Positions 35 through 5,200 of a DNA stretch of 5,680 bases are shown here, piece by piece (the stretch's first letter is position 1; each line of letters begins with the position of its first letter). A program made the position numbers and the translations under genes. The notes beneath the pieces are model-generated. The model had not been told where the DNA came from. It ran no database searches and saw nothing but the letters and a program-made list of their open reading frames with translations. The DNA comes from a virus (lineage: Duplodnaviria > Heunggongvirae > Uroviricota > Caudoviricetes): the IMG/VR virus record IMGVR_UViG_2740892041_000010, positions 1 through 5,680 of that record; one strand, written 5' to 3'.

Positions 35-190
35 CACATCCCCGTCAATACGGCCCTCGCTGTACGCTTACTTTTTTGGCGCCCGCCTGGTATTAACAGA
101 AAAATCAGAGTGGTGTGTCGAACGTGGTCAGCGACAGAACATATCACCTATACCGATTTTTCGTGTCAGTTTGACGAAGTGGTGATCTGA
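35..190 (+). pseudogene. 3' remnant of a tail-tip protein M-like gene, apparently disrupted or truncated
   Basis: The frame ending at TGA 188..190 overlaps the L start (TGATG), as the M-L junction does in lambda. Its last ~39 codons (LFWRPPGINRKIRVVCRTWSATEHITYTDFSCQFDEVVI) resemble my recollection of the lambda M C-terminus only loosely (about a third of positions). There is an in-frame TAA at 32..34 and no ATG or TTG between 35 and 188, only GTG at 110 and 113. All three + frames have stops within the first 34 nt. Confidence 0.35.
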
Positions 191-888
191 TGCAGGACAT
201 ACAACAGGAAACGCTGAATGAATGCATTCGTGCGGAGCAGTCGGCCAGCGTGGTGCTCTGGGAAATCGACCTGACCGAGGTAGGCGGGGATCGCTACTTT
301 TTCTGCAATGAGCAGAACGAGAAAGGAGAGTCTGTCACCTGGCAGAGTCGGCAGTATCAGGCCTATCCCATTCAGGGGAGTGGATTTGAGATGAACGGCA
401 AAGGTGCCAGTGCAAGGCCAACGCTGAAAGTCTCTAATCTGCACGGCATGGTCACCGGGATGGCGGAAGACCTGCAGAGTCTGGTCGGCGGAACGGTGGT
501 CAGGCGTAAGGTTTACGCCCGTTTTCTGGATGCGGTGAACTTCGTCAACGGAAACAGTGACGCCGATCCGGAGCAGGAGGTGATCAGCCGCTGGCGTATT
601 GAGCAGTGCAGCGAACTGAGCGCGGTCAGTGCCTCCTTTGTACTGTCCACGCCGACGGAAACGGACGGCGCTGTTTTTCCGGGGCGCATCATGCTTGCTA
701 ATACCTGCACCTGGACCTATCGCGGTGATGAGTGCGGTTATCACGGTCCGGCGGTCGCGGATGAATATGACCAGCCGACATCCGAAATCACGAAGGATAA
801 ATGCAGCAAATGCCTGAGTGGCTGTAAGTTCCGCAATAATGTCGGCAACTTTGGCGGCTTCCTTTCCATTAACAAACTTTCGCAGTAA
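190..888 (+). CDS. L: Tail tip protein L (lambda gpL family, putative Fe-S cluster-binding tail tip component)
   Basis: Complete 232-codon ORF, ATG 190 to TAA 886..888. The translation (MQDIQQETLNEC...FGGFLSINKLSQ) matches lambda gpL over its full length as I recall it. It has a C-terminal cysteine cluster (C173, C182, C205, C208, C212) and its start overlaps the upstream stop (TGATG). Confidence 0.93.
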   Translation: MQDIQQETLNECIRAEQSASVVLWEIDLTEVGGDRYFFCNEQNEKGESVTWQSRQYQAYPIQGSGFEMNGKGASARPTLKVSNLHGMVTGMAEDLQSLVGGTVVRRKVYARFLDAVNFVNGNSDADPEQEVISRWRIEQCSELSAVSASFVLSTPTETDGAVFPGRIMLANTCTWTYRGDECGYHGPAVADEYDQPTSEITKDKCSKCLSGCKFRNNVGNFGGFLSINKLSQ

Positions 889-893
889 ATCCC

Positions 894-1637
894 ATGACAG
901 AGACAGAATCAGCGATTCTGGCGCACGCCCGGCGATGTGCGCCAGCGGAGTCGTGCGGCTTCGTGGTGAGAACGTCGGAAGGGGAAAGATATTTTCCCTG
1001 CGTGAATATCTCCGGTGAGCCGGAGGAGTATTTCCGGATGTCGCCGGAGGACTGGCTGCGGGCAGAGATGCAGGGTGAGATTGTGGCGCTGGTCCACAGC
1101 CACCCCGGTGGTATGCCCTGGCTGAGTGAGACCGACCGGCGGCTGCAGGTGCAGAGTGATTTGCCGTGGTGGCTGGTTTGCCGGGGAGCGATTCACAAGT
1201 TCCGCTGTGTGCCACATCTTTCCGGGCGGCGCTTTGAGCACGGGGTGACGGACTGTTACACGCTGTTCCGGGATGCTTACCATCTGGCGGGGATTGAGAT
1301 GCCGGATTTTCATCGCGGGGATGACTGGTGGCGTCACGGTCAGAATCTCTATCTGGATAATCTGGAGGCCACAGGGCTGTATCAGGTGCCGTTGTCAGCG
1401 GCGCAGCCGGGCGATGTGCTGCTGTGCTGTTTTGGTTCATCGGTGCCGAATCATGCCGCCATTTACTGTGGTGACAGCGAGCTGCTGCACCATATTCCTG
1501 AACAACTGAGTAAACGAGAGAGGTACACCGACAAATGGCAGCGACGCACACACTCCCTCTGGCGTCACCGGGCATGGCACGCATCTGCCTTTACGGGGAT
1601 TTACAACGATTTGGCCGCCGCATCGACCTTCGAGTGA
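894..1637 (+). CDS. K: Tail assembly protein K, two-domain peptidase (N-terminal JAB/MPN/JAMM metalloprotease-like, C-terminal NlpC/P60 cysteine peptidase-like)
   Basis: 247-codon ORF, ATG 894 to TGA 1635..1637, starting 6 nt after the L stop. JAMM signature H-S-H-x7-S-x2-D at 1095..1136 with an upstream Glu in an AESCG strand (948..950). NlpC/P60-like Cys in DCYTLF (1254..1256) and His in PNHAAIY (1452..1454). An alternative internal start at ATG 1038 would give 199 aa; the 5' boundary is uncertain. Confidence 0.9.
   Translation: MTETESAILAHARRCAPAESCGFVVRTSEGERYFPCVNISGEPEEYFRMSPEDWLRAEMQGEIVALVHSHPGGMPWLSETDRRLQVQSDLPWWLVCRGAIHKFRCVPHLSGRRFEHGVTDCYTLFRDAYHLAGIEMPDFHRGDDWWRHGQNLYLDNLEATGLYQVPLSAAQPGDVLLCCFGSSVPNHAAIYCGDSELLHHIPEQLSKRERYTDKWQRRTHSLWRHRAWHASAFTGIYNDLAAASTFE
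1022..1028 (+). promoter_or_regulatory. Strong SD-like motif upstream of the internal in-frame ATG (1038) of K
   Basis: GGAGGAG with a 9-nt spacer to ATG 1038..1040. It could drive an internal initiation product of K, or simply encode the E-E residues of the long form. Confidence 0.3.
1516..1524 (+). promoter_or_regulatory. Shine-Dalgarno-like element for I, embedded in K coding sequence
   Basis: GAGAGAGGT ending 11 nt upstream of ATG 1535. Confidence 0.4.
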
Positions 1638-2182
1638 AAACGGGGTCCGAAGCCATCCGGGCGCTGGCCATGCAGATCCCGGCGTTTCGTCAGAAACTGA
1701 GCGACGGCTGGTATCAGGTACGCATTGCCGGGCGTGATGCAGGTGAAACTGAATTATCAGCCCGTCTTAATGAACCGCTGGCAAATGGTGCCGTGATCCA
1801 CATTGTGCCGCGTCTGGCGGGAGCCAAAAGTGGCGGTCTTTTTCAGGCTGTGCTGGGGGCGGCGCTGATTGCGGTGGCATGGTGGAACCCTGCAGGTTGG
1901 TTGGGGGCTGCCGCAATTACAGGAATGTATGGTGCGGGGGCCAGTATGGTGCTCGGTGGTGTGGCGCAGATGCTGGCACCGAAAGCCAGAACTCCCCGTA
2001 CACAGACAACGGATAACGGCAAACAGAACACCTATTTCTCCTCACTGGATAACATGGTTGCCCAGGGCAATGTTCTGCCGGTTCTGTACGGTGAAATGCG
2101 CGTGGGGTCACGGGTGATTTCGCAGGAGATCAGCACGGCAGATGAAGGAGATGGTGGTCAGGTTGTGGTGATTGGTCGTTGA
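1535..2182 (+). CDS. I: Tail assembly protein I (lambda gpI family; N-terminal domain followed by Gly-Gly and a Gly/Ala-rich hydrophobic segment)
   Basis: 215-codon ORF, ATG 1535 to TGA 2180..2182, in the -1 frame relative to K and overlapping its 3' end by 103 nt, as in lambda. SD-like GAGAGAGGT at 1516..1524. The translation matches lambda gpI at both ends as I recall it, with a variable hydrophobic middle. Confidence 0.88.
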   Translation: MAATHTLPLASPGMARICLYGDLQRFGRRIDLRVKTGSEAIRALAMQIPAFRQKLSDGWYQVRIAGRDAGETELSARLNEPLANGAVIHIVPRLAGAKSGGLFQAVLGAALIAVAWWNPAGWLGAAAITGMYGAGASMVLGGVAQMLAPKARTPRTQTTDNGKQNTYFSSLDNMVAQGNVLPVLYGEMRVGSRVISQEISTADEGDGGQVVVIGR

Positions 2183-2242: not shown

Positions 2243-5200
2243 ATGGGTAAAGGCAGCAGTAAGGGGCATATCCCGCGCGAAGCGAAGGACAACCTGAAAT
2301 CATCCCAGATGCTGAGCGTGATAGACGCCATCAGTGAAGGGCCGATTGAAGGTCCGGTGGATGGATTAAAAAGCGTGCTGCTGAACAGTACGCCGGTGCT
2401 GGACAGTGAGGGGAATACCAATATCTCCGGCGTCACGGTGGTGTTCCGGGCAGGTGAGCAGGAGCAGTCACCGCCGGAGGGATTTGAATCCTCCGGTTCC
2501 GAGACGGTGCTGGGTACGGAAGTGAAATATGAAACGCCGATCACCCGGACCATCACGTCGGCAAACATCGACCGTCTGCGCTTTACCTTCGGTGTACAGG
2601 CACTGGTGGAAACCACCTCAAAGGGAGACAGGAATCCGTCGGAAGTCCGCCTGCTGGTTCAGATACAGCGTAACGGTGGCTGGGTGACGGAAAAAGACAT
2701 CACCATTAAGGGCAAAACCACCTCGCAGTATCTGGCCTCGGTGGTGGTGGGTAACCTGCCGCCGCGCCCGTTTAATATCCGGATGCGCAGGATGACGCCG
2801 GACAGCACCACAGACCAGCTGCAGAACAAAACGCTCTGGTCGTCATACACCGAGATCATCGATGTGAAACAGTGCTACCCGAACACGGCACTGGTCGGCG
2901 TACAGGTGGACTCGGAGCAGTTCGGCAGCCAGCAGGTGAGCCGTAATTATCATCTTCGCGGGCGCATTCTGCAGGTGCCGTCGAACTATAACCCGCAGAC
3001 GCGGCAATACAGCGGTATCTGGGACGGAACGTTAAAACCAGCATACAGCAACAACATGGCCTGGTGTCTGTGGGATATGCTGACCCACCCGCGCTACGGC
3101 ATGGGGAAACGTCTTGGTGCGGCGGATGTGGACAAATGGGCGCTGTATGTCATCGGCCAGTACTGCGACCAGTCAGTGCCGGACGGCTTTGGCGGCACGG
3201 AGCCGCGCATCACCTGTAATGCGTACCTGACCACACAGCGCAAGGCGTGGGATGTGCTCAGTGATTTCTGCTCGGCGATGCGCTGTATGCCGGTATGGAA
3301 CGGGCAGACGCTGACGTTCGTGCAGGACCGACAGTCGGATAAGGTGTGGACCTATAACCGCAGTAATGTGGTGATGCCGGATGATGGCGCGCCGTTCCGC
3401 TACAGCTTCAGCGCCCTGAAGGACCGCCATAATGCCGTTGAGGTGAACTGGATTGACCCGAACAACGGCTGGGAGACGGCGACAGAGCTTGTTGAAGATA
3501 CGCAGGCCATTGCCCGTTACGGTCGTAATGTCACGAAGATGGATGCCTTTGGCTGTACCAGCCGGGGGCAGGCACACCGCGCCGGGCTGTGGCTGATTAA
3601 AACGGAACTGCTGGAAACGCAGACCGTGGATTTCAGCGTGGGCGCAGAAGGGCTTCGCCATGTGCCGGGCGATGTTATTGAAATCTGCGATGATGACTAT
3701 GCCGGTATCAGCACCGGTGGTCGCGTGTTGGCGGTGAACAGCCAGACCCGGACGCTGACGCTCGACCGTGAAATCACGCTGCCATCCTCCGGTACCACGC
3801 TGATAAGCCTGGTTGACGGAAGTGGCAATCCGGTCAGCGTGGAGGTTCAGTCCGTCACCGACGGACTTAAGGTGAAAGTGAATCGGGTTCCTGACGGCGT
3901 TGCAGAATACAGTGTGTGGGGGCTGAAGTTGCCGACGTTGCGTCAGCGCCTGTTCCGCTGTGTGAGTATCCGTGAGAACGATGACGGCACGTATGCCATC
4001 ACTGCCGTGCAGCATGTACCGGAAAAAGAAGCCATCGTGGATAACGGGGCGCACTTTGACGGCGACCAGAGCGGCACGGTGAATGGTGTCACGCCGCCAG
4101 CGGTGCAGCACCTGACCGCCGAAGTCACCGCAGACAGCGGGGAATACCAGGTGCTGGCGCGCTGGGATACGCCGAAGGTGGTGAAGGGCGTGAGCTTTAT
4201 GCTTCGCCTGACCGTGGCAGCGGATGACGGCAGTGAGCGGCTGGTCAGCACGGCCCGGACGACGGAAACCACATACCGCTTCACGCAACTGGCGCCAGGG
4301 AACTACAGGCTGACAGTCCGGGCGGCAAATGCCTGGGGGCAGCAGGGCGATCCGGCATCGGTATCGTTCCGTATTGCCGCACCGGCAGCGCCGTCGCGGA
4401 TTGAGCTGACGCCGGGCTATTTTCAGATAACCGCCACGCCCCATCTTGCCGTTTATGATCCGACGGTACAGTTTGAGTTCTGGTTCTCGGAAAAGCGGAT
4501 TGCGGATATCAGGCAGGTTGAAACCACAGCCCGCTATCTTGGCACGGCGCTGTACTGGATAGCTGCCAGTATCAATATCAAACCGGGCCATGATTATTAT
4601 TTTTACATCCGCAGTGTGAACACCGTTGGCAAATCGGCATTTGTGGAGGCTGTTGGCCAGCCGAGTGATGATGCATCCGGCTATCTGGATTTTTTCAAAG
4701 GAGAGATAGGGAAAACCCATCTGGCTCAGGAGCTGTGGACGCAGATTGATAACGGTCAGCTTGCGCCTGACCTGGCTGAAATCAGGACGTCCATTACGGA
4801 TGTCAGCAATGAAATCACGCAGACCGTCAATAAGAAACTGGAAGACCAGAGTGCGGCAATTCAGCAGATACAGAAGGTTCAGGTTGATACAAATAATAAC
4901 CTGAACAGCATGTGGGCTGTGAAGCTGCAGCAGATGCAGGACGGACGCCTTTATATCGCGGGTATTGGTGCCGGTATTGAGAACACCCCTGACGGCATGC
5001 AGAGTCAGGTGCTGCTGGCGGCGGACAGGATTGCGATGGTTAATCCTGCGAATGGCAACACAAAGCCGATGTTTGTTGGTCAGGGCGATCAGATATTCAT
5101 GAACGAAGTGTTCCTGAAATATCTGACGGCTCCCACCATTACCAGCGGCGGTAATCCTCCGGCATTTTCCCTGACACCGGACGGGCGGCTGACGGCGAAA

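Follow-up and report, generated by a model that had tools for sequence, protein, structure and literature searches.

The tail tip assembly protein K (TAPK) of phage lambda, gpK, has a published architecture that combines a JAB domain with an NlpC/P60 domain (PMC300881; PMC1779556). The protein is required for tail assembly (PMC12617516) and was not detected in virions by mass spectrometry (PMC10721106). Iyer et al. (2006) predicted that its JAB domain releases the ubiquitin-like domain of gpI by cutting after the C-terminal glycine of that domain, and the substrate proposed for K is a protein and not peptidoglycan (PMC1779556). In the virion tail tip only residues 135-223 of gpI are resolved (PMC10721106), and only residues 127-200 are resolved in PA0640, the F-pyocin homologue; both ranges are consistent with the predicted removal of the ubiquitin-like domain, without proving it. 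A literature search found no report of an enzymatic activity of gpK, and we infer, following the prediction, that its enzymatic role would be the processing of the gpI ubiquitin-like domain.

The stand-alone JAMM/MPN+ proteins (P. furiosus JAMM1, 5LD9/5LDA; 2KKS; 2KCQ; AfJAMM, 1R5X) share with the JAB part of K the same fold and the motif E...HSH-x7-S-xx-D, and the N-terminus of K coincides with theirs. The JAMM1 structure 5lda holds the ubiquitin-like SAMP2, which parallels the predicted pairing of K with gpI. Unlike these stand-alone proteins, K has its JAB domain fused to NlpC/P60, and its activity is predicted only. At the other end of the protein, E. coli MepS/Spr (C40) has the same Cys-His-His triad and the same fold as the C-terminal domain of K; unlike MepS/Spr, K presents no evident signal peptide or lipobox, and acts in cytoplasmic tail assembly. 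Lambda also carries two nested in-frame gene pairs, C/Nu3 and S107/S105, in which an internal ATG has its own SD and both products are documented.

The window (the whole stretch of 5,680 nt analysed here) comes from a lambda-like prophage of E. coli and covers its tail-tip operon, with genes L, K and I and the first part of J. Many lambdoid phages match it at 91-99% identity, and a prophage in E. coli LH85-a (NZ_CP100486) matches it at 99.9%; in the latter, RefSeq/PGAP places a 247-aa K, named 'C40 family peptidase', at identical coordinates. Pfam searches identified Phage_tail_L upstream of K and Lambda_tail_I downstream, with J next, so that the window has the TAPK-type neighbourhood L - K - I (ubiquitin-like) - J of siphovirus tail operons. 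Lambda gpK is the orthologue of the window K (94% protein identity), and lambda shares with the window the L-K-I-J order, the overlap with I and the L/K junction sequence. The start of gene I overlaps the final 103 nt of K and is preceded by an SD with a pairing energy of -9.3 kcal/mol. The genes are as follows.

190..888, + strand: gene L (minor tail protein L, 232 aa), from the ORF, Pfam Phage_tail_L (327 bits) and the RefSeq annotation of the 99.9% identical prophage.
894..1637, + strand: gene K, long form (247 aa, 28.4 kDa), with N-terminal JAB/JAMM and C-terminal NlpC/P60 domains, from the ORF, Pfam, AlphaFold2 and PGAP (NZ_CP100486).
1535..2182, + strand: gene I (215 aa, ubiquitin-like N-terminal domain), from the ORF and Pfam Lambda_tail_I; predicted substrate of K (PMC1779556).

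Two in-frame ATG codons compete as the start of K. The frame is open from ATG 894 to the stop codon at 1635-1637, giving the 247-aa product, and five nucleotides (ATCCC) separate this ATG from the TAA of L at 886-888. An internal ATG at 1038 would give a product of 199 aa (23.0 kDa), and the GGAGGAG run upstream of it is placed at a 9-nt spacer.

894..896, + strand: proposed true start codon of K, without an SD, weakly folded and just past the L stop.
1022..1028, + strand: SD-like GGAGGAG within the coding sequence, overlapping the codons of E42-P43-E44-E45 (anti-SD pairing -9.5 kcal/mol).
1038..1040, + strand: internal in-frame ATG (Met49), from which the lambda reference record begins its 199-aa K.

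The upstream start lacks any anti-SD pairing (+0.7 kcal/mol). The earlier note had seen no obvious SD there, and its account of both ATG codons, with their products and the internal SD-like run, agreed with our data. The mRNA around ATG 894 is unusually open: a folding energy of -7.8 kcal/mol places the surrounding 60 nt in the least structured 6% of segments of the L-K-I region, and the unpaired probability is 0.59 as compared with a background of 0.35 +/- 0.10. In all, 296 related loci were collected, with three single-protein scans among the sources, and 216 of them hold unique, intact K genes. A further 38 loci were excluded, being cut off by contig ends, copies in decayed prophages, or genes so distant that they align from residue 10-11. 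The weak folding of the start region was observed in every identity band of this collection, and in 216/216 loci an ATG lies no more than three codons from the M1 alignment column. L was located in 194 loci, and in 189 of these the K start falls between -4 and +11 nt from the L stop, some of them overlapping. In more distant clades a weak AAGG precedes the K start; the lambda clade has nothing recognisable at this place.

This anatomy suggests that initiation of K may be coupled to termination of L 5 nt upstream (termination-reinitiation), within an unusually unstructured stretch of mRNA, and we consider such coupling the probable initiation mechanism, with room left for doubt. Reinitiation without an SD is usually inefficient, and a coupled start of this kind would be expected to keep K expression low, which would fit a non-structural assembly enzyme.

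The part of K that the two starts do not share was then compared with the JAB family. The relevant features of the protein, including the C-terminal domain, are these.

894..1037, + strand: codons 1-48, encoding helix 3-15 and strands 21-27 and 30-36 of the JAB fold (conservation, AlphaFold2 model).
948..950, + strand: GAG codon of Glu19, the catalytic Glu of the JAMM motif E-x(n)-HSH-x7-S-xx-D (conservation, alignment to solved JAMM proteins).
1095..1136, + strand: zinc-binding part of the JAMM motif, HSHPGGMPWLSETD, residues 68-81 (sequence, conservation).
1224..1565, + strand: NlpC/P60 domain, residues 111-224, with C121/H187/H199 (Pfam PF00877, conservation, fold matches).

Against Prok-JAB (PF14464; curated cut-off 25 bits), the long form aligned over residues 4-98 with 53.8 bits, covering profile positions 4-103 of 114, while the short form covered only positions 63-103, with 23.6 bits, and failed the cut-off; codons 1-48 contribute 30 of the 54 bits. 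Residues 8-25 of K read ILAHARRCAPAESCGFVV and include Glu19. With this residue the JAMM motif, defined as E-x(n)-H-S/T-H-x7-S-x2-D (PMC300881), is complete in the long form as E19 and H68-S69-H70-x7-S78-x2-D81. The C-terminal domain matched the full PF00877 profile (positions 1-105 of 105) with 46.1 bits, the cut-off being 23, and its fold matches were MepS and other NlpC/P60 enzymes. K may thus be described as a predicted two-domain peptidase, with JAB/JAMM (Glu19, His68, His70, Ser78, Asp81) followed by NlpC/P60 (Cys121, His187, His199).

A scan of 1.84 billion representative proteins returned 2,831 relatives. Nearly all full-length ones of 34-58% identity align from query residues 2-15; 85 of these were placed in an alignment, and most homologue N-termini lie within a few residues of M1. 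Glu19 is present in 84/85 of these distant homologues and in 216/216 loci; G22 and N38 are invariant in the 85 and P17, C21 and F47 are kept in at least 90%. In the remainder of the two active sites, H68, H70 and D81 are invariant, S69 and S78 are kept in at least 90%, and C121, H187 and H199 each in 84/85; for the JAMM motif as a whole the figure is 84-85 of 85. Averaged by column, residues 9-48 carry 1.92 bits as compared with 2.05 for residues 49-98, so that the two stretches are conserved to nearly the same degree. A homologue restricted to the short form would have sequence available upstream but no N-terminal homology there, and none of this kind occurs among the 296 loci.

We also estimated omega over sets of disjoint sequence pairs. 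For codons 2-48 it was 0.29 (bootstrap 0.25-0.34) in close pairs and 0.22 (0.18-0.25) in mid-distance pairs, and for codons 50-213 it was 0.11-0.13; codons 2-24 taken separately gave 0.35-0.47, above the rest of the gene. The substitution pattern, for which the earlier note had asked, indicates that codons 1-48 are under purifying selection at the protein level.

Structural comparisons gave the same picture for the N-terminal segment. For 2kks and 2kcq, both stand-alone JAMM proteins, the alignment places position 2-4 of the family profile at residue 4-5, and the profile segment 'prEaCG', which contains Glu19, falls on the catalytic Glu of solved JAMM proteins ('EaCG'); 5lda was also matched. 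The AlphaFold2 model of K has a mean pLDDT of 97.3, and P. furiosus JAMM1 (5ld9/5lda) fits its JAB part with an rmsd of 2.5-2.6 Å over 107-109 columns and a TM-score of 0.67 (target-normalised, Foldseek). Rpn11, CSN5 and AMSH were further Foldseek matches, so the predicted structure has an MPN fold. Since the model puts the catalytic Glu, helix 1 and two core strands within residues 1-48, a protein starting at Met49 would be without them. The earlier proposals that the first 48 codons are needed for a complete JAB domain and that they hold the conserved JAMM Glu are thus borne out. Taken together, conservation, selection, structure and start-site context argue for the long form as the functional enzyme, and the 247-aa protein from ATG 894 is very likely both the functional and the principal product of K.

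The lambda reference record gives K as 199 aa, the length at which the earlier note, with some doubt, had put lambda K, and we traced this annotation to a single missing base; it does not constitute evidence for a short protein. In NC_001416 the counterpart of ATG 894 is at 14133; a translation begun there is correct for 45 residues (MTQTES...GEPEA), after which the frame slips and a stop follows after 76 codons. About 10 nt before ATG 14276, other sequences have GGAGGCGTATTTCCGTATG and the reference has GGAGGC-TATTTCCGTATG, so NC_001416/J02459 is without one G, and codons 1-45 are out of frame with the remainder. The base in question lies near 14266; both the window and resequenced lambda have the ORF intact. 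When seven lambda-derived contigs, present as contaminants in unrelated bacterial assemblies, were compared with NC_001416, each showed 0 mismatches and exactly this one gap over 2,701 nt. The 501-nt spacing of the reference occurs in only four records of the phage collection (J02459, NC_001416, OR474059 and OR974322), the last two being very similar in length to J02459/NC_001416. The spacing is 502 nt in PV340536, KT232076, LC730321, DE3, lambda imm21/imm434 and HK629/630, which are independently sequenced lambda and derivatives, and an intact 247-codon ORF was found in 5/5 of those checked (PV340536, KT232076, lambda imm21, DE3 and phage 434). A commercial supplier's notes on its lambda sequence reportedly list an inserted G at 14266 relative to J02459.

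The 199-aa annotation of lambda K therefore exists because the base missing from J02459/NC_001416 breaks the long ORF; the annotators of 1982 were unable to see that ORF and took the first ATG past the apparent frame break. The legacy call was then copied onto intact sequences, with 199 aa in DE3 and lambda imm21 and 211 aa from a GTG in KT232076, while PV340536 and phage 434 (GenBank) carry 247 aa. A full-text literature search found no discussion of the K start or of the gap in the reference sequence. The long start of K is essentially already known, and what is at issue is a matter of annotation and not new biology.

With regard to the internal site, GGAGG alone occurs 11 times in the window (11.7 expected), and GGAGG-N(4-11)-ATG occurs once, as compared with about 2.0 expected, with at least one occurrence in 179/200 shuffles; the frequency of an internal SD with an ATG is not above chance. 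Codon 49 is ATG in 137/216 loci and ATA, ATC, ATT, CTG, GTT or TTA in the others, and the family consensus at residue 49 is Ile (57/85 homologues). Even close relatives differ: the codon is CTG in a 95%-identical E. ruysiae prophage and ATC in an E. albertii prophage. The SD-like run, which encodes Glu-Pro-Glu, is confined to relatives of at least 80% identity (the lambda clade), and only the closest members of that clade have it together with ATG49. The internal AUG and the run also fall within a predicted hairpin.

1010..1049, + strand: predicted stable RNA hairpin enclosing the SD-like run and the internal AUG (folding; lambda-clade-specific).

Positions 1005-1060 (56 nt) fold at -25.4 kcal/mol (z = -2.8), and the 60 nt centred on 1038, at -30.2 kcal/mol, are the most stable of all such segments across L-K-I. 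As a thermodynamic prediction that is specific to one clade, the hairpin serves as supporting evidence only. It was considered as a conserved RNA element and rejected, since strong folding of the region is limited to relatives with 80% identity or more, and we treat it as a probable clade-specific by-product of the repeated CCGGAGG sequence.

The presence of a strong internal SD (-9.5 kcal/mol) at a 9-nt spacer raises the question of whether K, like C/Nu3, gives two products, the 247-aa protein from ATG 894 and a nested K' of 199 aa from ATG 1038, composed of NlpC/P60 and a remnant of the JAB domain. Retention of ATG49 in 120/125 relatives of at least 90% identity would allow some internal initiation within the clade, and phage versions of K with an NlpC/P60 domain only have been reported (Iyer et al., PMC1779556). 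However, ATG49 is kept in only 5/18 loci of the 80-90% band (missing in 13/18), in 10/19 of the 60-80% band, where the SD is gone, and in 0/49 of the 45-60% band (missing in 49/49), so the internal start and its SD are not conserved among relatives, and the internal start of K is not conserved even among close ones. Synonymous (third-codon-position) diversity around 1016-1063 is ordinary, the SD and AUG lie in the most stable local hairpin predicted, the motif occurs at chance frequency, and the short form would begin with an unfoldable half of a JAB domain. We consider two products improbable. A variant restricted to the lambda clade, in which a K' with NlpC/P60 as its only complete domain would be regulated by the hairpin at AUG 1038, opened only by ribosomes arriving from 894, so that its amount would be tied to upstream translation as in C/Nu3, appears slightly more improbable, and the evidence argues against selection for such a K'. 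A minor internal product in the lambda clade, arising by low-level adventitious initiation, is possible but comparably unlikely. Most likely, GGAGGAG and ATG 1038 would be a by-product of coding (Glu-Pro-Glu-Glu ... Met) with no selected second product. Of the two alternatives that the earlier note left standing, that the long form is functional is strongly upheld, and that both forms are made found no comparative support.

Two further readings dispense with ATG 894 altogether. If only the 199-aa protein were made, the upstream 144 nt would be an untranslated L-K spacer; the RefSeq/GenBank records of lambda, DE3 and lambda imm21 give 199 aa, and the internal site has the stronger RBS. But all intact relatives examined keep the frame open through this supposed spacer, whose protein sequence is under purifying selection and includes the conserved catalytic Glu and JAB core elements, while the reference annotation is explained by the 1-nt gap. 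A simple scan of positions 800-2300 found no sigma-70-like promoter, and so no separate source of a short-form transcript. We rejected this reading, because the spacer is coding and conserved and the gap accounts for the annotation, and it retains almost no probability. Starts at GTG 963, GTG 966 or GTG 1002 were rejected as well and are hardly more credible: they are preceded by weak to moderate purine runs (-6.1 to -7.9 kcal/mol), and KT232076 (lambda) annotates its 211-aa K from the equivalent of GTG 1002, but the spacers are long (11-16 nt), all three starts remove the conserved Glu19 and helix 1, and homologue N-termini cluster at the M1 column. We conclude that K is an ordinary gene start without an SD, beside an internal SD and ATG that arose by chance.

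The practical value of this result lies in the correct annotation of a paradigm phage, since the RefSeq/GenBank records of lambda and its derivatives DE3 and lambda imm21 still carry the 199-aa K. The short version has entered later work: a 2020 review treated gpK as '199 in total' and gave only the peptidase domain at residues 52-182 (PMC7291167), and the protein list of J02459 was the basis of the lambda ORFeome with which two-hybrid mapping was done (PMC3224144). A 199-aa construct would be without the catalytic Glu and three JAB core elements and could mislead through negative results, and the predicted removal of the gpI ubiquitin-like domain by JAB is testable only with the 247-aa protein. 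For others, the use of our analysis is that the lambda discrepancy is explained and that work on gpK should employ the 247-aa protein. In the window itself, PGAP already gives the long form, and the annotation needs no change.

In the lambda reference (NC_001416 13000-15700, locus L003) one G is absent at record position ~14266/14267 (locus position ~1267), to be compared with the following site of the window:

Window 1027-1029: equivalent, by sequence comparison, of the missing-G site of the lambda reference

This one-G gap breaks the long K ORF in the reference record, and K of lambda is annotated there as a 199-aa product because of this interruption. The same G was present in seven lambda contigs, which were completely identical to the reference except for this extra base, and also in resequenced lambda, DE3, imm21 and HK629/630. 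Assemblies labelled as Neobacillus, Pseudomonas, Shewanella, Chromatium and Bradyrhizobium, among others, contained lambda DNA in contigs of low coverage (L008, L010-L014, L016, L018-L022, L026 and L027, in addition to other genome-contig matches), some of them ~48.4-48.5 kb long, which evidently represent laboratory lambda contamination. The record 'Campylobacter phage CJLB-4' (48,361 bp) likewise matched lambda at 99.8%.

The internal SD-like run and the internal AUG of K are both predicted to lie within a hairpin made of CUCCGG/CCGGAG repeats, which was limited to relatives of at least 80% identity:

Window 1010-1049: hairpin predicted to be stable, at -25.4 kcal/mol with z = -2.8

Among 132 close relatives, the minimum of nucleotide diversity was located at the L/K junction together with K codons 1-24 (window 872-967), where third-position diversity was 0.062, as compared with 0.10-0.27 in the rest of K, and the dS of codons 2-24 was approximately half of that determined for the remaining codons. 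This low diversity could result from selection on the initiation region or from a shared recombination block. In three K copies from cryptic prophages (L052, L054 and L056; E. coli ECMA0423 and Shigella flexneri SFBU1023) the gene has decayed, with frameshifts or stop codons in the first 50-150 codons.

A second start discrepancy, beside that of K, was observed for gene I, whose start is annotated differently among records, and involves the region where both genes overlap:

Window 1535-1637: K/I overlap, compared with loci L002 (mEp460), L302 and L303

The long I start, an ATG located 103 nt inside K and preceded by a good SD (-9.3 kcal/mol), is used in lambda, by PGAP and in the window, while a shorter I, starting at the K stop with an ATGA overlap, is annotated in mEp460, PV340536 and KT232076. 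Since in the long product the Pfam Lambda_tail_I domain already starts from residue 14, the long start seems to be right. For K codons 214-247, close pairs gave a dS of 0.017 and an omega of ~1.5, which agrees with the expectation for an overlap in which the I frame dominates.

Three further features were observed in the window:

Window ~2196-2230: GC-rich inverted repeat and, after it, a T-rich run (GAAACCGCCTCAGGGCGGTTTTGTCGTTTC), between the I stop (2182) and the J start (2243)
Window 166-1584, minus strand: long open frame of 472 aa, antisense to L/K
Window 3173-4720, minus strand: long open frame of 515 aa, antisense to J

The inverted repeat was not flagged by a simple terminator scan; the phage 434 record carries an annotated terminator at the equivalent site. 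A GC-driven artefact is the probable origin of both antisense frames, which are of low complexity with abundant Pro, Arg and Ala.
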